Source: a virus. Taken from it: a stretch of DNA of 39,031 bases. Numbering within the stretch: position 1 is the first letter of the stretch; each line of letters starts with the position of its first letter. Positions 1 to 38,981 of the stretch are shown here, piece by piece. Position numbers and translations under genes: made by a program. The notes below the pieces were generated by a model. The model was not told the DNA's origin. It worked only from the letters and a program-made list of their open reading frames with translations, and searched no databases. The stretch lies in the UHGV virus genome UHGV-0112814. The stretch is one strand, 5' to 3'.

Positions 1-40
1 CATGGTTCGCGTCAGATCGTTGACAGCCGCACTCCATGAC

Positions 41-85
41 GGGTAAAAAGTGGATAAAATAATTTTACCCACCGGATTTTTACCC
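41..85 (+). repeat. Cluster of GGGTAAAA-type motifs (two direct at 41..49 and 52..60, two inverted ttttaccc at 63..70 and 78..85) directly upstream of the int start codon
   Basis: Same motif family as at the other window end; typical of integrase arm-type binding sites. Confidence 0.5.
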
Positions 86-1467
86 ATGCTCACCGTTAAG
101 CAGATTGAAGCAGCAAAGCCGAAAGAAAAACCATACCGCCTTCTCGATGGTAATGGCCTGTACCTTTATGTCCCTGTATCAGGGAAAAAGGTATGGCAGC
201 TTCGCTACAAGATTGACGGTAAGGAGAAAATCCTGACCGTAGGAAAATATCCGCTAATGACTTTGCAGGAAGCAAGAGATAAAGCATGGACCGCGAGGAA
301 AGACATCTCGGTTGGCATCGATCCGGTAAAAGCGAAAAAGGCTTCGTCTAACAACAATTCCTTTAGTGCCATTTACAAGGAATGGTACGAGCACAAGAAG
401 CAAGTCTGGTCAGTAGGCTATGCAACTGAACTTGCCAAAATGTTTGATGACGACATTTTACCCATCATCGGCGGTCTTGAGATTCAGGATATTGAGCCGA
501 TGCAACTGCTGGAAGTAATCCGCAGATTTGAAGATCGCGGTGCAATGGAGCGAGCAAATAAAGCCCGCAGAAGATGCGGCGAGGTTTTCCGTTACGCTAT
601 TGTCACCGGCAGGGCTAAATATAACCCGGCACCTGACCTTGCAGACGCCATGAAAGGATACCGCAAGAAGAACTTCCCGTTTCTTCCTGCAGACCAGATC
701 CCGGCATTCAACAAAGCACTGGCAACATTTTCAGGAAGTATCGTATCGCTCATTGCGACCAAAGTTTTACGCTACACAGCCCTAAGAACGAAAGAGCTTC
801 GCTCCATGCAATGGAAGAACGTCGATTTTGAAAACAGGATTATCACCATCGACGCCAGTGTGATGAAGGGACGCAAAATTCATGTGGTTCCTATGTCAGA
901 CCGTTTCTTCCTGCAGACCAGATCCCGGCATTCAACAAAGCACTGGCAACATTTTCAGGAAGTATCGTATCGCTCATTGCGACCAAAGTTTTACGCTACA
1001 CAGCCCTAAGAACGAAAGAGCTTCGCTCCATGCAATGGAAGAACGTCGATTTTGAAAACAGGATTATCACCATCGACGCCAGTGTGATGAAGGGACGCAA
1101 AATTCATGTGGTTCCTATGTCAGACCAGGTGGTTGAACTTCTCACTACGCTAAGCTCAATCACCAAACCAGTATCAGAGTTTGTTTTTGCCGGGCGCAAC
1201 GATAAGAAGAAGCCAATCTGCGAGAACGCGGTACTGCTTGTGATCAAACAAATCGGCTATGAGGGTCTGGAAAGCGGTCACGGATTCAGGCATGAATTCA
1301 GCACGATTATGAACGAGCACGAATGGCCTGCTGATGCTATTGAAGTGCAACTGGCACATGCCAACGGCGGATCTGTGCGCGGGATTTACAACCATGCTCA
1401 GTATCTCGATAAGCGCAGAGAAATGATGCAGTGGTGGGCGGACTGGCTTGATGGGAAGGCGGGCTAA
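86..1467 (+). pseudogene. int: P4/IntS-type tyrosine integrase, reading frame broken by an internal 224-bp tandem duplication (N-terminal fragment ends at stop 1007-1009; C-terminal fragment resumes as ORF 1030..1467)
   Basis: ORF 50..1009 and ORF 1030..1467 share the peptide MQWKNVDFENRIITIDASVMKGRKIHVVPMSD; the second ORF continues into a tyrosine-recombinase C-terminus (HGFRHEF ... GIYNHAQY). ATG at 86 (MLTVKQIEAAKP) preferred over the track start at 50. 224 is not a multiple of 3, so the frame shifts. Confidence 0.85.
677..1124 (+). repeat. Perfect direct tandem duplication, 2 x 224 bp (copy 1 677..900, copy 2 901..1124), with 2-bp CC microhomology at the junction
   Basis: The string ccgtttcttcctgcagaccagatcccggc ... 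gttcctatgtcaga occurs twice back to back, identical by eye. Confidence 0.9.
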
Positions 1468-1754: not shown

Positions 1755-2804
1755 TTGAAACTTAATGATATTTTAAAGAAAGAAAATAACAATATAGATA
1801 TATTCAGAGTCATAGCTGCATGTCTGGTTATATGGGGACACGCTTATGTAATATCACCTGAAGTTGGGAAAAGTGATTTTATCACTTACCTTTTACCTCA
1901 CGACACTAGCGGTTCTATTGCAGTTAAAATATTCTTTTTCTTAAGTGGCTTAGTTGTTACTAACTCGATATTAACAACAAATAGTCCAATAAAATTTATT
2001 GCATCGAGATTTTTCAGGATATGGCCTGCTTTATTTTTCACATGTATTATTTGTGCATATATCATAGGGCCAATCGTTTCGACTCTTCCTTTGAAAGAGT
2101 ATTTCAATCCTGAAAACAGGATTTACCTTTATGTGTTTAACAATATATCGATGATAACGCAATACAATCTCCCCGGAGTTTTCTTGGATAATCCACACCC
2201 CATAAGTGTAAACGGTTCTTTATGGACAATTCCTTACGAGGTATATGCATATATAATTCTTTTATGTCTGTTTTGTATTGGGATTTACAAAAAACCGCTG
2301 CTAGTAGCATTTTTGGCTGTGGCAATAACATTTGAGTCTGTTTCTAAAATAAAAATTGTTTTTTTTAGCACACCATCTAACCCAGAAGTGCCAATGCTTG
2401 CGGCATGTTTTGCGTTCGGCTCAGTATTGGCCGCATATAAAAATGTAATTTCAATAACGTTAAAAACCTTTATCTCCCTATGGATATTGTATATTCTCCT
2501 TATTGATAACCCATATTCAATGTATCTATCCTATGCGGCAATCTTTATTGCCATACTATACTTATCAAAAACAAACACACTATTAAAGATTAAGCCAAAA
2601 GCTGACATATCCTATGGTGTGTATCTTTGGGGCTTTCCTGTTCAGCAAATCATAGCAATGTATTTTCTTAATAAAGGGGTGCTTTTTAACCAAATCTTAT
2701 CGATTTTTATATGCATAGTTCTTGGTTGGGCGTCATGGCACTTGGTAGAGAAAAGATTTATAAATCTCGGAAAGTTGGTGGGGAACCGCTTATCAGGTAA
2801 ATAA
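1755..2804 (+). CDS. oac: Integral membrane acyltransferase (acyltransferase-3 family), O-antigen acetylase-like serotype-conversion moron; TTG start
   Basis: 349 aa, highly hydrophobic multi-pass protein with an N-terminal IDIFRVIAACLVIWGHAY-type motif typical of acyltransferase-3 enzymes; very AT-rich by eye; sits between int and tailspike as oac does in Sf6-type phages. RBS aggtga upstream of TTG. Confidence 0.7.
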   Translation: MKLNDILKKENNNIDIFRVIAACLVIWGHAYVISPEVGKSDFITYLLPHDTSGSIAVKIFFFLSGLVVTNSILTTNSPIKFIASRFFRIWPALFFTCIICAYIIGPIVSTLPLKEYFNPENRIYLYVFNNISMITQYNLPGVFLDNPHPISVNGSLWTIPYEVYAYIILLCLFCIGIYKKPLLVAFLAVAITFESVSKIKIVFFSTPSNPEVPMLAACFAFGSVLAAYKNVISITLKTFISLWILYILLIDNPYSMYLSYAAIFIAILYLSKTNTLLKIKPKADISYGVYLWGFPVQQIIAMYFLNKGVLFNQILSIFICIVLGWASWHLVEKRFINLGKLVGNRLSGK

Positions 2805-2855: not shown

Positions 2856-5126
2856 TTACAAGCAAGCAGTTAACGGGAATGCAGTGTCTCCAATGTTAAG
2901 GACGACAGCAGCGATATCAATAGCAAAAACAGTACCGACAGGAAGGTTAATATTGACAATAACCTTTTCTTGTGTATCTAGAGAAGCACCTGGCGACATT
3001 TGGGCCACCCTGAAGTGAATAAACCTTCTGTAAAAATTCCCATCGTTTGGTATTGATACTACATTGTCACCCGAGCTTGCAAACCCTCCATTAACAGAAA
3101 CTACTGTTCCAGTGATGCCGCCAACTCCGCCAGCAGTAAACGTTTTAGCATAAAAAGAAAGGCACACATTACACCCCTGAATTTTGGCAGGAGAGATATC
3201 TAATTCAAATTGTAGCTGAAGATATGTTTGATCTGTAGCAGGTGATGTGCATAGTAACTGGAATGCATTTCTTTGCATATCTAATCGGTTTCGCTCATAT
3301 CCTCCTGCTGCAGTATTATTAGTAGTCCTTTTAGTTAGAGTAAAGCTACCTCCGGTTCCATCTGAAACGGCAGTCAACCCGCTTATTCCGAAATTACTAT
3401 TTATAGGAGCAGCGCCAACATATCCATTAATAATATCTGATGCATCCGAAATCTTCACTAGATTTTTTACTCTGCTTTTATATGAAGGCTTGTAAACAGA
3501 TGCGTACTCAGGCTCAATAAGATATCCAATATTATTTAAATTACCATCGTATCTAATAGTGCCAATATCCCAGTTTTTGTGACCAATAATTTCAGGAGAT
3601 TCAATTAACGGGTAGTGATAATGCACAAATGTTGCTTTATCAATAGACAAATCCTCTAATGCTAAATTATTTCCAAATATGAAATATCTACTTACGTGTT
3701 CAGTATTACCCATATTTGCATAACTACCATTTACTGTTAATCTTTTTACAAATGTAGATGCACCATTATCAACCATTCCGGCACCGCCATCGGCCTTACT
3801 GCCTGTAAAATATGGGTCATCATCATATGATAGCTGGATGCATTTAATTACCTCCCCTTCCTCTGGGCCAAATGGTTTCTCTGAGTAGAAATTTAGAAGT
3901 GTTACATCTGCACAACCAGCTGAAATGATAACATCAGTAAGCATGCCATTGTTTGCTCCTCCTTCAATAACCGTGCGCCAACCGCTAATCCAGTAAGCTA
4001 TCCCGCCACGCGACCAGCCAACACCTTCCACCTTATTGTTTGTTGCCGTCAACAATGTACTCCAAAGATCAACAACTTTACCAAGAACATGATCTTCGTA
4101 GTAACCAGGGCAGCGCACAAAGTTTCGTGTATTCACCCTATCAGCTATGAAATCGGTATGGGCCTCGAACAAGCAATCCCTTACCGATACCCTCCAGTTG
4201 TTAAATTCGGCATTAACAGCCCAGGAGCCATCTCCGCCAAACGCACGGAATTCGCAATTAGATACATCGCAATAAGTTACCCAATGAGCAAAATTTATTG
4301 CATATCCTGATGTTGCCCCCCCCTTAAAAACAGCACCTTCAATACTGTAGTGCTTATTAAACGGGGTCTTACCAGTAGCTCCGTTGTAGTCTCCGCTTAG
4401 ATCATATGGGCCCATGTTAAAGGCGTTTCCTGAGCCTAAGTAATGGAATACAGTTCCTTCGCAGATAATTCTTACCGGTCTGGTGAAATGCATGTCTTTA
4501 GAATATGAGATTGTACCTGGTGGGAATAGCACTCCAACAGGAATTCCATCAGTATTAGGTATCGCGTTCACATACTCCACGAAAGCGTTGATCGCATCAG
4601 TAGAGTCAGTACCATCCATCTTTACACCAAAGTCCTGTGGTGTGATGAAATCCTGATTTTTATCGTGTTGCGTCCTGTGTATTGCACCAATCGCAGGGAG
4701 GTGAACACCAATCAGCGCATCACCCTTTGTATCGTCATCGATATAACTGCCATCTTGAGCAAGCTGGTCTTTGAAGTCAGGACCAAACTGATCAGGGTCA
4801 TACTTCAGCACGTTAGGGAAATAGAACTGCTGAGCACCGTACGCATCATAAACAGCCATAGAATGGCCTTGCACAGTTACGAACTTGGCAATCTGTCCGT
4901 TATATACGGGGTAACCAGCAGCGTTAATGATGATTGGTTGCGATACAGGAACGTGAGAGCCGTCTTCGTTCTCTACATAAACCTGAATCTGGTTTTCAGG
5001 ATTTACCGGGTCAGTGTCAATTTTACCGATATAAATTTTGCCATTGGCTACGGCTTTAAAAGAACGAGCCATAGTGAAGAGTTGCGAAGGCATGCTGACC
5101 ACAACATTTGCGGTGATATCTGACAT
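2856..5126 (-). CDS. Tailspike protein with P22-type N-terminal head-binding domain and a divergent receptor-binding body
   Basis: N-terminus [59 protein letters not shown] closely matches the P22 gp9 N-terminus. Start moved to ATG at 5126 (the track start at 5174 adds 16 aa). Confidence 0.9.
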
Positions 5127-5174: not shown

Positions 5175-5247
5175 ACCGAAATGGTACTATTGAGTATTTA
5201 TCCAGTAGGTTACGATGCCATTCCACCCAACTGGTGAGACATCAAGG

Positions 5248-5508
5248 ATGTACAGCAAATACGACGAGGCGCAGTTTCACTTGAGACTTCCGCATGAACT
5301 CCACGCGAAAATTAAGCAGCGTGCGAAGATGAATAACAGGTCGCTGAACTCAGAGATAATTGCAGCGATTGAAGAATCATTGGCTAAACAAAGCTCTGCA
5401 TCAGTTTACATTGACGATGCAGAGCGTATGGCAGAACAACAATCTGATATGGTTAAGAAAATTGTCTTTGATACGCTCAAGGAGCTATATAAAAAAGACA
5501 GCAACTAA
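5248..5508 (+). CDS. mnt: Mnt-like ribbon-helix-helix repressor
   Basis: FHLRLPHELHAKIKQRAKMNNRSLNSEII ... DDAERMAEQQSDMVKKIVFDTLKELYKK aligns with P22 Mnt; transcribed opposite to the late genes as in P22. Start ambiguous between 5215 and 5248. Confidence 0.8.
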   Translation: MYSKYDEAQFHLRLPHELHAKIKQRAKMNNRSLNSEIIAAIEESLAKQSSASVYIDDAERMAEQQSDMVKKIVFDTLKELYKKDSN

Positions 5509-8992: not shown

Positions 8993-9688
8993 TTAAAACA
9001 ACGATCCAAGCAGGCCAAGTCCGCCGCCAATTGCCGCACCTAATCCAGTGCCAAGTCCTGGAACAATAGAGCCAAGAGCAGCGCCAGTCATAGCCCCTGA
9101 AGCTCCGCCGCTAATTGCTGTCTGAAGACCTGATGGTTTATTGGCATTAGCAGCGGCAAGAGCCGCACTTTGCTGCAAAATCTGACTCATGTTGTTGGCG
9201 TATGTCTGCCCGGCGTTTGCCTGACCTTGCAGAGCACCAAGACCAACGTTTGCCAGATTGTTGTAATTGCTCATCTGGTTTGATAACCAAGACTGACCGA
9301 GTGTCGGCGCGATCGTAGCCAGTTGATTGCTTGTGGCTGTCGAACCAAGTCCGCCAGTCGCTTCAGCAGCAGCAAGACTCTGGTAACGAGCCTGACCTGC
9401 AAGGTCTTTATACTGCTGAGAGTTGTAATACTGATTAAGTGCCTGCCCCTGACCTTCTAAACTGGAAAGGTTCTGAAGCTGGTTAACATACTGCTCCGCA
9501 AGAGGCGTGAACGGAGCAAGGTTTTTCATGATCGTCTGCCACTGCTGATTTTGCAGGTCTGCGTCATACTTCTGGGCTTCTGCTGCATACTTTGCGCTTT
9601 TATCAGAGCTACCACCTTTCCCGCCTTTTTCATGGCACCAAGGTTCCTCGCCGCGCAGTTTTCTGCCCAGCTTAAATGCATATAACAT
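8993..9688 (-). CDS. DNA ejection protein (P22 gp7-like)
   Basis: N-terminus MLYAFKLGRKLRGEEP...EKGGKGGS resembles P22 gp7; 231 aa versus 229 aa. Confidence 0.8.
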   Translation of the reverse strand: MLYAFKLGRKLRGEEPWCHEKGGKGGSSDKSAKYAAEAQKYDADLQNQQWQTIMKNLAPFTPLAEQYVNQLQNLSSLEGQGQALNQYYNSQQYKDLAGQARYQSLAAAEATGGLGSTATSNQLATIAPTLGQSWLSNQMSNYNNLANVGLGALQGQANAGQTYANNMSQILQQSAALAAANANKPSGLQTAISGGASGAMTGAALGSIVPGLGTGLGAAIGGGLGLLGSLF

Positions 9689-9690
9689 GG

Positions 9691-10146
9691 CTATCTCCCG
9701 TGATTCAGGAAGTCGATTAGTTCTTCGCGTGTGGCGCTGTAAAAAGTCACGTCATCCACACCTTTAAAGTATTTCTTGATGGTCCCGACACGCTTAAGGC
9801 CAATCATTGCGCAGTAAATCTGCCCGTGGCGGAATTTGCGTGCGGCGAACGATGTGACGCACTGAACGGTGGTGTTAGTCAGAATGTATCGCCAGAACGC
9901 CAGCCCGATTTCCTTGCTGAAGCCGCGAATCTCTGGCAGGTACATGGCGTGGCAATCGAATGTCAGCGGCTGAATCTCCTGATAGTAAACAATGCCGCCA
10001 AACTGACCGTGCACGTTAACCTCAAAGTAACGGCATTCAGGCTTGTAGTCGTATCCATCACCGTTGTTGCTCCCGGCGATAATGTCAGGGTGATTTCCGA
10101 CTGCTTCTATCAGGTCGATGTTTCGCGTTGGTTTGAATGTAATCAT
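9691..10146 (-). CDS. Virion-associated protein in the P22 gp14 position (assignment by synteny only)
   Basis: 151-aa ORF between tail needle and gp7, translationally coupled to both. Confidence 0.45.
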   Translation of the reverse strand: MITFKPTRNIDLIEAVGNHPDIIAGSNNGDGYDYKPECRYFEVNVHGQFGGIVYYQEIQPLTFDCHAMYLPEIRGFSKEIGLAFWRYILTNTTVQCVTSFAARKFRHGQIYCAMIGLKRVGTIKKYFKGVDDVTFYSATREELIDFLNHGR

Positions 10147-10784
10147 TAATCAATCAACCCATGTGCACGCAAGGCGTCTTCCAAAGCCTTAGTGCGCCGA
10201 CGCTCAGCAATTAGAGCATTGGCTATAGCCTGGATTTCAGATTGCGTGTAAGTATCGCTAACGGTGAATGTCAGGTCAGCATTGAATACGCCTTTATTCG
10301 CCGTACCTGTTGCCGCGGTCCATCCAGTCTGGCGAGCGCCAACAACTTTTGTACCGTTAACAGAATAACTTCCTGATACGTTAAGGGATGAGGCAAGAGT
10401 TTGAGTTCCTGCTCTGCTGAGTGAAACATAATCAACGATTATCTCTGATACCTTACCGTCGATATCCTGAACTTTTATTTTCAGACCATTAACATCATTC
10501 TCTATTTCAAGAAGCTTTACTTTTATTCCTGAAATATCCTCTTCTGTTTTTGCAATTCTTTTTTCGTGCTCATCAAGAATTACATCCTGCTCATCATTTC
10601 TGACCTGCGCATCATAAGCACCGCCTCCTGCCTTATTTGCCTTTTCTGCAATGGAGCCAACATCAGTACCCTGATTTATGACATACAGAAGGTAAGACTG
10701 ACTGAATATGTTGCGAGGGAGAATAGATGCATCAATGCGTGTAGCCTGAACCACGACAGGCTTATTAAGTGACGGGTCTGCCAT
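10146..10784 (-). CDS. Tail needle protein (P22 gp26-like)
   Basis: N-terminus [43 protein letters not shown] matches the gp26 N-terminal tip; coiled-coil heptads follow. Confidence 0.85.
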
Positions 10785-17343: not shown

Positions 17344-18759
17344 TCAACCTACACCACAAGGAATTGAGTAACTGGAATAGTCGGGTTGCGCAGCCGACTC
17401 CGGGCAATGCATACACATCATCAGCGCATCAGCCAGGTTAGGAGATGGAATACCGAGCTTCTGCTTCATTTCGACCTTAGTCATAAGCTCCAGCTTCCCG
17501 TTATTATTGAATTTGCGCTGAATCTGCGTCAGTTCTGCAAACAGCTTCTCCAGCATCTTCTCGCCTATCGCTTCTTTGTCGAAACTCAGCATGTCGTCGG
17601 GGTCTGCATACTCACCGTAAACAACCGCCCGATATGTCAGATACAGCCTGTCAGCCAGCGCGTAATAGAATTGCGCTCGCTTATTGCGGAACACATCACC
17701 AATAGTGCGAACGTTGTCGCCCTGCACGACTTCATCAGCCCATGCTCCGGCCTGATATGGTGCATCTTCATCGAATGGCGATTCACTGCCCTTGAACATC
17801 GTGGCGGTGATTTTCTTGCCGGAGAACGCTTCCGTTGTCTGTCTGCGTAGCCCCGCACCGACGCCATCACCATCCCACAGGTAATGGTCAGCGCCGTCTT
17901 CAATCGCCAGCGAAGTAGCCCAGTCAGCACCCTCGTTGATGTCCATCAGCAGACCTTCGGCAATGCGCTTAACTACCGAACCGTGACGCGATGCGTAACC
18001 TTTAGCATCTGGCCCTGTATCTGATGGGTCATGCGCAGAGACAACCGCGCCCTTCGCTTTCCATCCGAGTTTCTTGTGCGCATCGGTTGCGGCTTCAAGC
18101 CATTCACGTTTGATGATTGCCATATCACTTGCGCTTACTGGCTCACCAAGCCAGATGTGACGATACAGTGTCGGATTTCTGCGTTTACACTCTTCCATCT
18201 CCAGACGGAGGACTTCAGGAAAATGCGGGTTGTCGGTGTAGTTCACCGTCAGCAGGCAAATATCATCGGGAGGATTTACGACGAATCGCTGATAGGTATC
18301 GTCGAGGATGTTTTTCGGGTTGAAACTTACCCATATTTCAGAGAACGGCTTACGGATGGTTGGAATCAGGATATCCCACGATTCCTTCGTTACCGCTTCC
18401 GCTTCTTCCACCCAGCAGATATCAATGCCTTCGAGCGATTTAATCTTCGTCGGGTTGTTTTTGATGCCGTAGAACATGAATTCAGCATTCGTTCCGAGAT
18501 GACGAATCATGGAACGCTGAATTTCAAACTCAGCCGAATACCCTTCCCGCTCTATGGTGTCTTCAAGCAACCGAATTACCGAATCGCTGATACTGTTTTG
18601 CAGCTCACGAGCGCAAAGTATGCGCACAGGCTGCCGACGCGCCGCTTCAACAAGCAGCCTCGCAATTGCCCATGATTTGCCGCTACCTCGACCGCCTTTG
18701 GCGACTTTGTAGCGATGCGCCTCAATGAACGGTTCAAAGATAGGATTAATCGAGGTCAT
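17344..18759 (-). CDS. Terminase large subunit
   Basis: 471 aa; Walker A-like KGGRGSGKS near the N-terminus; position upstream of portal. Confidence 0.9.
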   Translation of the reverse strand: MTSINPIFEPFIEAHRYKVAKGGRGSGKSWAIARLLVEAARRQPVRILCARELQNSISDSVIRLLEDTIEREGYSAEFEIQRSMIRHLGTNAEFMFYGIKNNPTKIKSLEGIDICWVEEAEAVTKESWDILIPTIRKPFSEIWVSFNPKNILDDTYQRFVVNPPDDICLLTVNYTDNPHFPEVLRLEMEECKRRNPTLYRHIWLGEPVSASDMAIIKREWLEAATDAHKKLGWKAKGAVVSAHDPSDTGPDAKGYASRHGSVVKRIAEGLLMDINEGADWATSLAIEDGADHYLWDGDGVGAGLRRQTTEAFSGKKITATMFKGSESPFDEDAPYQAGAWADEVVQGDNVRTIGDVFRNKRAQFYYALADRLYLTYRAVVYGEYADPDDMLSFDKEAIGEKMLEKLFAELTQIQRKFNNNGKLELMTKVEMKQKLGIPSPNLADALMMCMHCPESAAQPDYSSYSIPCGVG

Positions 18760-19196
18760 TTTCCGAATAGAGTGCTCATCGGTGATGTTTCAATCTGAAT
18801 TGCGCCGCCGTCTTTGCCTGTTAGTTCGTGATCAACCTTGTCGCGCCATTTATCCTTCTGTCGGTTCTTAAGCCAGAAGATGGCGGCGGTTGTATCAGGC
18901 GGGTAATACTTCTCAAGCGGAGTTTCGACAATTCTGTTTTCAATAACACGAATATCGATGTCTGGAGCCACGAAGCCCATAGCGCGTTGATAAAGACGGT
19001 CACTAACTTCTGCATCAGCAACGGCCTTACCCTTTTTTATGGACTCCGAAAACTCAGGATAATCAAGCTTCCACTTGTTAATAGTTGACTCACTGACTTC
19101 GAAGAAATCAGCAAGCTCTGCATCGGTGTAGCCCAGCAAGCACAGTTTGCGTGCCTGTTCGGCGTACGCCTCTTGATACTTTGTTGGGCGCGCCAT
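18756..19196 (-). CDS. Terminase small subunit
   Basis: 146-aa ORF with stop/start overlap onto TerL; HTH-like N-terminal region. Confidence 0.7.
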   Translation of the reverse strand: MARPTKYQEAYAEQARKLCLLGYTDAELADFFEVSESTINKWKLDYPEFSESIKKGKAVADAEVSDRLYQRAMGFVAPDIDIRVIENRIVETPLEKYYPPDTTAAIFWLKNRQKDKWRDKVDHELTGKDGGAIQIETSPMSTLFGK

Positions 19197-23938: not shown

Positions 23939-24117
23939 CTTGTTTTCCTCGCACGTTCTCTAAGCCACCGGATATCCCACAGGTGAGCCGTGTAGTTGAA
24001 GGTTTTTACGTCAGATTCTTTTGGGATTGGCTTGCGTTTATTTCTGGAGCGTTTCGTTGGAAGGTATTTGCAGTTTTCACAGATGATGTCGGTGATACTT
24101 CGTCGCTGTCGTCTCAT
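23935..24117 (-). CDS. ninE: NinE
   Basis: [52 protein letters not shown] matches lambda NinE. Confidence 0.8.
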
Positions 24118-24644
24118 GCCGCCCTCCTGACGCCCTGCCCGATCGCCATCAATGCCGCTTTGGATACGGTAGTAAACATCCGTCGAGGACTGATGAACGG
24201 TCGCCAAATCAGCAGCATGGAGCCTTTGCTGTTTCCCTTCTTCTCCAGCCCTGTCGATGGTTCGATAAAATTAATCCGTCCATCAGTGATAATGCGAACT
24301 TCGTCGACACTCTCCAGAGCCTTGCTGAACCATCCGACAGACATATCCTCTGGCACAAGCATCACTACCGTCTGTCGCTGTTGTATGCACTGCTCAGCTG
24401 CTTTTTCCACCCACGGCCTGATATTGCTGTACGGTGGGTTATTCCAGATTGCACCGTGACTTACCCACTCAGAATTGAGCGCGTCGTCGGCCTCAGTTAG
24501 CCAGTGAGCGCACAGAGCATTTTTGTCGCTCGCTGCCGAATCCAGCCAGAATCCAAACTCAATATCCAGTGCATCAAAAAGCCAGAGCGGCGTTTGCCAG
24601 CAGTCTCTAACTTCTTTTGGTGTTTCTGATTTATGCTTAATCAT
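24114..24644 (-). CDS. Phage-type DNA N6-adenine methyltransferase (Dam-like, orphan)
   Basis: 176 aa with NPPYS catalytic motif; ATGA-type overlaps with flanking genes. Confidence 0.75.
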
Positions 24645-25168
24645 ACAACCTTCGCATATTGTCCGTGATATTTGTTGATAGCCTCACTGGCAACCAAACA
24701 AGCAAGTTCAAGATCTTCATAGAGCCCAAAATACAACCGGCCAAAATCTGTGCGCACTTGAACGGCCCATTTATTTTTTTGCTTGTTCCATAAAACATTT
24801 TTTATTCCAGAACGGCTATTGCACTTAGTTTTCTGATTTCGGCTGTTTGCTATCCGGCCTGCCTCCCTAAGATTTTTTGGGGAATTGTCCAGCCTGTTTC
24901 CGTTAATATGGTCAATATTTTTCAATGGCATTCTTTTGTTGTGCAGCGCAAAAACAACTACGTGAACAAACATCTGAATGCCTGCAAAACACACCTGTCT
25001 ATACCCAGATCCATTTATCGATGTTTTAATTTCATCTCCTGCCCGGTGGCTGTGGTTGGGGTGTTTTAGCGAGTCCTTTTTGTATCTGACTGTATCTCCG
25101 TCTAAATACAGATAATCCTCAATAAGCCGATACCTATCTGACGCTGGCGTATTTGATTTGATAGTCAT
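24641..25168 (-). CDS. HNH endonuclease (homing-endonuclease-like)
   Basis: IDHINGNRLDNSPKNLR HNH motif; AT-rich relative to neighbours by eye; start at ATG 25168 overlapping the NinB stop. Confidence 0.7.
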   Translation of the reverse strand: MTIKSNTPASDRYRLIEDYLYLDGDTVRYKKDSLKHPNHSHRAGDEIKTSINGSGYRQVCFAGIQMFVHVVVFALHNKRMPLKNIDHINGNRLDNSPKNLREAGRIANSRNQKTKCNSRSGIKNVLWNKQKNKWAVQVRTDFGRLYFGLYEDLELACLVASEAINKYHGQYAKVV

Positions 25169-25605
25169 GCAGCCCGATCTCCCCATCGCGCTTTCCATTC
25201 GAGAGCCAGTCGCGCTTCGTCTGACCACTTAACGCCACGCTCTGTACCGAATGCTTGTATAAGCTCTAATAGCTCCGCAAATTCGCCTACACGCATCCTG
25301 CTGGTTGACTGGCCTATTACCACAAAGCCATTCCCGGCAAGGTTAGGAACAACGTCCTGCTGCTTTAATGCTGCGGTAAACACACACTTCCAGCTTTCTG
25401 CATCCAGCCAACGCCCATGCCATTCAACCTGACGAGAGACGTCACCAAGGCAAGCCCAAAGCTTCCGATTCTGGTCTAAGCTGCGGTTGCGCTCCTGAAT
25501 GATCACTACGATTGGCTTGGTTTGGTCTGGAAGGATTTGCTGTACTGCGTGAATAGCGCTTTGCTGATGTGCCGGAGATCGAATTTCAAAGGTTAGTTTT
25601 TTCAT
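25165..25605 (-). CDS. ninB: NinB recombination protein
   Basis: MKKLTFEIRSPAHQQSAIHAVQQILPD ... matches lambda NinB; start at M7 of the track ORF. Confidence 0.9.
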   Translation of the reverse strand: MKKLTFEIRSPAHQQSAIHAVQQILPDQTKPIVVIIQERNRSLDQNRKLWACLGDVSRQVEWHGRWLDAESWKCVFTAALKQQDVVPNLAGNGFVVIGQSTSRMRVGEFAELLELIQAFGTERGVKWSDEARLALEWKARWGDRAA

Positions 25606-38737: not shown

Positions 38738-38780
38738 TGCCTGATTTGCAGGTTCGATTCCCTATTCGGAGATAGCACTC

Positions 38781-38981
38781 ATGCAACACGAACTACAACC
38801 TGATTCACTGGTTGATTTGAAATTCATCATGGCTGATACTGGCTTCGGTAAGACCTTCATCTATGACCGGATTAAGTCCGGCGACCTGCCTAAAGCCAAA
38901 GTTATCCACGGACGAGCAAGATGGTTATATCGTGACCATTGTGAATTCAAAAATAAGCTCTTAAGCCGCGCCAATGGGTAA
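38781..38981 (+). CDS. xis: AlpA-family excisionase / DNA-binding protein
   Basis: 66 aa; TGFGKTFIYDRIKSGDLPKAKVIHGRARWLYRD fits the AlpA/Xis HTH pattern; last gene before the int end of the element. Confidence 0.6.
   Translation: MQHELQPDSLVDLKFIMADTGFGKTFIYDRIKSGDLPKAKVIHGRARWLYRDHCEFKNKLLSRANG

Follow-up and report, generated by a model that had tools for sequence, protein, structure and literature searches.

A private 224-bp tandem duplication has probably inactivated the integrase of an otherwise intact P22-like prophage at argW

The integrase IntS of the Escherichia coli K-12 element CPS-53/KpLE1 and the integrases of phages Sf6 and HK620 have in common a three-domain layout, insertion at the argW-yfdC site and an attP core. 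What happens to a phage of this general type when integrase is removed has been described for P22, of which engineered delta-int/delta-xis prophages in Salmonella are 'locked in', that is, their replication takes place in situ and the adjoining chromosome is amplified; the P22 pac site lies in terS and packaging is directed toward the terS 3' end (PMC8575938). The behaviour of a gene interrupted by a repeat of part of itself has been followed in tetA null alleles, which revert by precise deletion between the tandem copies; a chromosomal construct in wild-type E. coli gave no revertants, deletions being below detection (PMC7145654).

The window considered here is the whole stretch of DNA that was analyzed, 39,031 nucleotides of UHGV virus genome UHGV-0112814, and the element that it represents is a P22/Sf6/HK620-like prophage at the tRNA-Arg gene argW of E. 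coli from a human gut metagenome. When one copy of the repeat described below is ignored, positions 1-1459 are 97.0-97.4% identical at the DNA level to the int regions of Sf6 (gene 16) and HK620, and the gene follows IntS, Sf6 and HK620 in its three domains, its argW-yfdC site and its attP core. It differs from all three, however, in a 224-bp internal duplication that leaves two open reading frames (ORFs) of 307 and 145 aa, an arrangement present in no other copy examined. We consider it likely, with a probability of roughly 75%, that this is a real, very recent and private duplication within IntS, in an otherwise intact P22-like argW prophage that is probably int-null. The gene is thus IntS, the phage belongs to the P22-like group, and the lesion is of an ordinary spontaneous kind. 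The features on which the following account draws are these:

1..85, plus strand: region upstream of int with the excision promoter and arm-type attP repeats, placed by homology to phage HK620
86..1009, plus strand: N-terminal integrase fragment, 307 aa, made of native IntS residues 1-272 and 35 out-of-frame residues, ending in TAA
677..900, plus strand: copy 1 of the 224-bp unit, encoding IntS residues 198-272, the start of the catalytic domain
901..1124, plus strand: copy 2 of the unit, 100% identical to copy 1, with the novel junction at 900|901
1007..1009, plus strand: premature TAA stop resulting from the frameshift, seen in the ORF translation
1015..1020, plus strand: AAAGAG, a putative weak Shine-Dalgarno-like motif read from the sequence
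1030..1467, plus strand: C-terminal integrase fragment, 145 aa, native IntS residues 241-385
1125..1126, plus strand: CC microhomology, the first two bases of the unit recurring after copy 2
1755..2804, plus strand: acyltransferase (Acyl_transf_3, Pfam PF01757) between int and the tailspike gene
2856..5126, minus strand: tailspike with P22 head-binding domain (Pfam), 756 aa as called
18756..19196, minus strand: terminase small subunit (phrog_309), expected by analogy with P22 to contain the pac site
38781..38981, plus strand: 66-aa homologue of HK620 HkaC and Sf6 gp18, the last gene before attR

The preliminary description of this DNA had reported two identical, directly adjacent 224-bp copies, and both Tandem Repeats Finder and a string comparison bear this out. 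The former returned a single strong array at 677-1126 (period 224, 2.0 copies, 100% matches, 0 indels, score 900), and by the latter 677-900 equals 901-1124, the match extending by 0 bases to the left and by 2 bases (CC) to the right. A perfect repeat of this length is far beyond chance and cannot have arisen by it. The ancestral sequence that we infer reads ...AACTT[CC GTTTC...GTCAGA]CC AGGTGG..., in which the two end points of the bracketed unit share the 2-bp microhomology; apart from this CC, no flanking repeats or hairpins were found at the end points. The most likely origin of the duplication is template switching or slipped misalignment at the CC during replication. A template-switching origin at this site is plausible but weakly supported, since two bases would agree by chance in about 1 of 16 cases. 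Because the two copies show zero divergence and the gene is intact apart from the duplication, the event appears to be recent. It can be dated no closer than by this identity of the copies because a near-identical single-copy prophage was not found, the nearest one being 99.1% identical over 11.3 kb. Apart from the 224-bp array, the 39 kb contains a single tandem repeat, a weak one of two 21-bp units (9558-9599, 81% matches) within the gene of a gp7-like ejection protein, and it is probably meaningless.

A duplicated unit of 224 bp, a length not divisible by 3, shifts the reading frame of int, and an in-frame repetition of a domain was ruled out on the same ground. The ORF that starts at the native ATG at 86 loses the original frame on passing into copy 2 and ends at the TAA at 1007-1009, and the motifs HGFRHEF and GIYNHAQY are both carried by the separate ORF at 1030-1467, so that the frameshift and the detached C-terminal part previously noted are confirmed by translation. 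When one copy was deleted in silico, a 385-aa ORF was obtained and intact IntS was restored. This collapsed protein agrees at 383 of 385 positions with an intact E. coli TB06053 protein annotated as 'prophage integrase IntS', the gene of which adjoins tRNA-Arg downstream of yfdC. A protein identical to the collapsed one throughout is encoded on 208 public contigs, from E. coli and Salmonella enterica, and bears the same label.

We compared the domain content of the collapsed protein with that of the two fragments by Pfam. The collapsed protein contains an N-terminal arm-type domain (Arm-DNA-bind_3 at residues 2-86, E=1e-25), a core-binding domain (Phage_int_M at 93-188) and the Phage_integrase catalytic domain (199-365), and at residues 87-196 it has the exact sequence of PDB 2kj8, a domain of the CPS-53 integrase. 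The N-terminal fragment has Arm-DNA-bind_3 and Phage_int_M at these same positions and only positions 2-75 of the 172 of the Phage_integrase profile; the C-terminal fragment covers positions 44-170 of the same profile. As the catalytic residues we take, from the box I and box II motifs and not from a structure, R234 (in TALRTKEL), K264 (MKGRK), H324 and R327 (HGFR), H350 (LAH) and Y360 (GIY). The N-terminal fragment then has R234 and K264 and lacks H324, R327, H350 and Y360, whereas the C-terminal fragment has K264, H324, R327, H350 and Y360 and lacks R234. The whole catalytic domain together with the complete R-K-H-R-H-Y set is consequently absent from any one polypeptide as encoded, and is found in one after removal of a copy in silico. 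The C-terminal fragment, moreover, could be made only through a translational restart at the ATG at 1030. Because the active site is split, with R234 set apart from H324, R327, H350 and the nucleophile Y360, the function of the integrase has probably been lost. Across all called genes of the element, the recombinase domain PF00589 was detected on these two fragments only and no further recombinase domain was found, in agreement with the earlier statement that the duplication lies inside the only integrase gene.

The remainder of the element gives the impression of an intact phage. A P22-like (Lederbergvirus) set of virion and ejection genes with a head-binding tailspike was found by Pfam, namely P22_portal, P22_CoatProtein, P22_Tail-4, Phage_stabilise, P22_gp7, Inj_translocase, Phage_P22_gp16 and Head_binding, and the PHROG matches, most of them profile-wide, agree. 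Full-length ORFs are present for the ejection proteins, head closure, coat, portal, both terminase subunits and the tailspike; for holin, lysozyme and Rz, a Q-like antiterminator, NinB, RusA, Dam, CII and RecT; and for a replication O-like protein, a primase-helicase and a Peptidase_S24 repressor. Coat, portal, head-closure and DNA-transfer proteins match their profiles from end to end, and the terminase subunits, primase/helicase, repressor and Q-like antiterminator match part of a larger profile. The view that the rest of the element is intact accordingly holds at the level of full-length ORFs for the major genes, although some of these cover part of a profile only.

The sites on which the integrase acts were located in the source contigs. 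The first ORF of the window (GTG at 50) is preceded by 49 nt and the last (stop at 38981) is followed by 50 nt; the window was evidently cut on gene coordinates, with the att cores lying outside. To the left of the window, at a distance of 75-90 nt, the 3' end of argW forms the attL core CTGCAGGGGACACCAT; these 16 nt recur at attR, 24-39 nt to the right of the window, followed by genes of dsdC-dsdX-dsdA type. The element is thus inserted in a tRNA gene with the core repeated at both ends. Because both att cores are intact, the substrates of excision appear to be sound and the enzyme alone broken. The region upstream of int is likewise preserved, in that positions 2-85 of the window are identical to 1501-1584 of the HK620 locus that we retrieved, the 'prophage excision' promoter of HK620 mapping to 20-69 and its attP repeats to 40-86. 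At the far end of the element, the 66-aa HkaC-like protein is possibly an excisionase; it had no match in Pfam or NCBIfam. Just upstream of its gene, at 38746-38762, a 17-nt sequence, TTGCAGGTTCGATTCC, equals the T-arm region of argW 5' of the att core and overlaps the region that HK620 annotates as a cII-activated integration promoter. This similarity could be due to chance or be the relic of an old attachment site.

Because the sole integrase is split and the remaining genes and att cores are intact, a prophage that can no longer excise, as had been suggested, is the best reading of the locus, and its most likely state is that of a prophage recently locked in and excision-defective. Without Int, excision by recombination between attL and attR should fail, and any progeny should be unable to lysogenise. 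On induction, replication should still begin in situ, by analogy with the locked-in P22 prophages. Because terS is encoded on the minus strand, headful packaging would be expected to move toward lower coordinates, that is, leftwards from terS through the late genes, int and attL and into argW-yfdC-mlaA-fadL. By the same analogy the first headful would contain roughly 19 kb of phage DNA and then host DNA, and the outcome would be defective or transducing particles instead of viable phage.

The resemblance to locked-in P22 (delta-int/delta-xis and Mud-P22) lies in headful packaging, a full set of lytic genes and an Int activity that is probably absent. On the other hand, the P22 derivatives are engineered deletions in Salmonella, whereas the present allele is a duplication that arose spontaneously in a wild E. 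coli of the gut and is in principle revertible. A comparable relation holds for the tetA repeat alleles (101-bp/787-bp, pSTL57 / pSTL55), in which an internal duplication likewise gives a null allele and precise deletion restores the gene (PMC7145654); those, however, are laboratory constructs carried mostly on multicopy plasmids, whereas the present unit is 224 bp long and chromosomal. The locus offers a clean natural case of the first step by which a temperate phage becomes a trapped, defective prophage, through one replication error in its integrase gene. If the junction is confirmed in reads, it would be the wild counterpart of the engineered 'locked-in' P22 used for the study of in situ replication and lateral transduction. 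Its importance beyond one strain is small.

We searched for the junction in other genomes. With a 40-nt query it was absent from 5,426 complete E. coli genomes, and with a 36-nt query and exact scanning it was absent from GTDB (100,044 species representatives) and from IMG/VR viral contigs and JGI metagenome contigs, collections none of which includes the source of the window. A 100-nt junction query gave, in the E. coli genomes, two-piece matches spanning 226 bp only, which is the single-copy arrangement; about 1,660 of the complete genomes carry this segment of int, always as a single copy. The frameshifted 307-aa product was found on 1 contig only in a collection of 15 billion proteins, this being the ERZ651920 contig NODE_51 to which the window itself corresponds. 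All 19 related loci from isolates and metagenomes, retrieved through a shared acyltransferase, tailspike or Mnt module, encode an intact 385-aa Int and lack the junction. The allele is private to one sampled strain.

An allele confined to one strain raises the question of whether the duplication was made by the assembly, through a loop wrongly traversed or an overlap left unmerged, or by chimeric molecules in the library. Taken together these origins are unlikely. They derive some credit from the nature of the data, namely a short-read metagenome assembly of modest coverage, a 224-bp repeat exceeding the k-mers used, so that the assembler set the number of loop traversals, and the failure to find the junction in the E. 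coli, GTDB, IMG/VR and JGI collections. The window corresponds to ENA ERZ651920 NODE_51_length_163316_cov_14.5 with 0 mismatches over 11,009 bp, and three other assemblies of the same strain match it with 0 mismatches over 7-22 kb. One of these (ERZ28576098, FENG16-1_SAMEA4378238 scaffold_27) carries the same junction: one of its contigs begins 53 nt before the junction and spans all of copy 2, and the preceding contig stops 55 nt into copy 1, with 100 N between the two, a gap within copy 1 that might itself be held against the duplication. The junction is nevertheless internal to a contig, and not at a join, in two assemblies made by different software, and was seen neither solely at a contig join nor in the output of one assembler alone.

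The two remaining assemblies break off within the repeat, and the positions of the breaks are informative. The MEGAHIT contig k127_45205 (ERZ917625; run ERR1578629, PRJEB15111, human gut metagenome) ends at window position 1000, its terminal 127-mer consisting of the last 125 nt of the unit followed by CC. This is the node preceding the branch at k=127, after which the paths split into ...A, leading to the right flank, and ...G, leading to the junction. The Logan contig ERR1578629_11063 agrees with the window at every position over 22,199 bp, and its end, computed from its length, falls at window position 1097, where 28 nt of the unit and CCA make up a 31-mer (k=31). The ends of the two contigs, the second as computed, fall exactly at the branch nodes, of k=127 and k=31, respectively, which is to be expected if reads lead on into the right flank as well as into the junction. 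In addition, De Bruijn assemblers create no k-mers of their own, and an overlap of 2 bp could not lead them to connect the end of the unit with its start by mistake; a rare chimeric read is normally dropped as a low-coverage edge.

Because the four programs behave as for a graph that loops on the unit, we conclude from the assemblies that the junction is present in the reads, and that it is very unlikely to be an artefact of the assembler. The number of copies in the contig, which may in reality be 2 or more, is the assembler's choice. The assemblies differ by 0 mismatches and almost certainly share one read set; all four very probably derive from ERR1578629, with which a library-level artefact would be compatible. 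The concern about assembly expressed in the preliminary description has thus been largely answered by a second assembly with the junction and by two that break at the branch k-mer, but its remaining part persists to the extent that the reads are probably shared. An overlap artefact of the kind seen in circular phage contigs was ruled out, the element being flanked on either side by host genes within a chromosomal contig of 163 kb. The case shows that, for perfect internal tandem repeats in metagenome contigs assembled from short reads, a check is possible even when the reads are not at hand, by comparing the break points of independent assemblies of the same run.

A second alternative accepts the duplication and makes it one state of a reversible switch, such that the population holds both single-copy and duplicated int, and gain and loss of the repeat toggle an excision-proficient and a locked-in prophage. 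This, too, we regard as improbable. A pure and a mixed population would give an identical assembly graph, perfectly identical copies are the best substrate for repeat deletion, collapse would restore exactly the wild-type protein, and intragenic tandem repeats do revert by deletion in tetA assays. However, only one state is documented; the event has not recurred in the roughly 1,660 E. coli genomes with the int segment or in the 19 close relatives, as would be expected of a phase-variable locus; formation at a 2-bp microhomology is rare and non-programmed; and neither a hairpin, nor a longer flanking repeat, nor any other accessory feature was found at the end points. Because the chromosomal construct gave no revertants in wild-type E. 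coli, deletion between its repeats being too rare to be detected in the cited assay (PMC7145654), a low rate of reversion is to be expected.

A rare collapse could restore the gene, which is a generic, low-frequency trait of any tandem repeat, and nothing suggests an evolved switch; a literature search for published integrase switches based on tandem duplication returned no relevant case. The earlier proposal of a switch as the function of the repeat is therefore not upheld, given an allele in one strain, intact Int in all 19 relatives and one documented state. It is more doubtful still that the allele is polymorphic among the E. coli of this gut and reverts often enough to matter, the lineage alternating between a temperate phage and a locked-in prophage. 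If this were true, the locked-in state would, on SOS induction, package the adjacent argW-yfdC-mlaA-fadL side of the chromosome, and the prophage would be a natural, reversible lateral transducer of the Mud-P22 kind.

Least probable by our estimate is a split but still active enzyme, in which the N-terminal fragment (1-272) would pair with a restart product (241-385) to reconstitute a working recombinase, so that the prophage still excises: fragment complementation is known for Cre recombinase, the fragments jointly cover every residue with a 32-residue overlap, and translation may restart at the ATG at 1030, which lies 20 nt past the premature stop and is preceded at 9 nt by the weak AAAGAG (itself 6 nt past that stop), but the break falls inside the catalytic domain and separates Arg234 from the rest of the active site, the N-terminal fragment bears 35 unrelated residues, a dimerising module is lacking, expression of the C-terminal fragment is putative, and no natural two-piece IntS was seen, the cluster members of about 145-170 aa being labelled 'partial' and lying on short contigs, so that complementation is conceivable but unsupported. 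We thus retain the reading of a recently locked-in prophage.

The prophage was also compared with known P22-like phages. DNA identity over shared modules is 94-98% for Sf6, HK620, CUS-3, Kapi1 and others; of the first 25 kb, 36-61% aligns with CUS-3, Kapi1, Sf101 and others, and identity within the aligned part is 94-96%. The order int-oac-tailspike of Sf6 is matched here, the acyltransferase gene holding the place of the O-antigen acetylase gene oac. The exact acyltransferase protein occurs on 110 contigs; like the collapsed integrase, it is recorded in identical form from both Escherichia coli and Salmonella enterica, and the int-acyltransferase module appears to be common to the two genera with no amino-acid change.

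Three further regions differ from relatives or deserve mention. At the position of the tail needle (10146-10784, minus strand), the window encodes a protein of 212 aa with no Pfam hit, whereas most relatives have a 282-aa Phage_tail_NK protein there, and the tail-needle gene is a module swap. Between the tailspike gene and the gp16 ejection gene, a lone gene for a 97-aa Arc/Mnt-like repressor (5215-5508, plus strand) stands with no antirepressor called beside it, whereas some relatives carry P22_AR or Bro-N at this place; the locus may be a reduced immI region. In the nin region (24114-25228, minus strand), genes for an HNH_3 endonuclease and a Dam-family methyltransferase, both recognised by Pfam, adjoin NinB.
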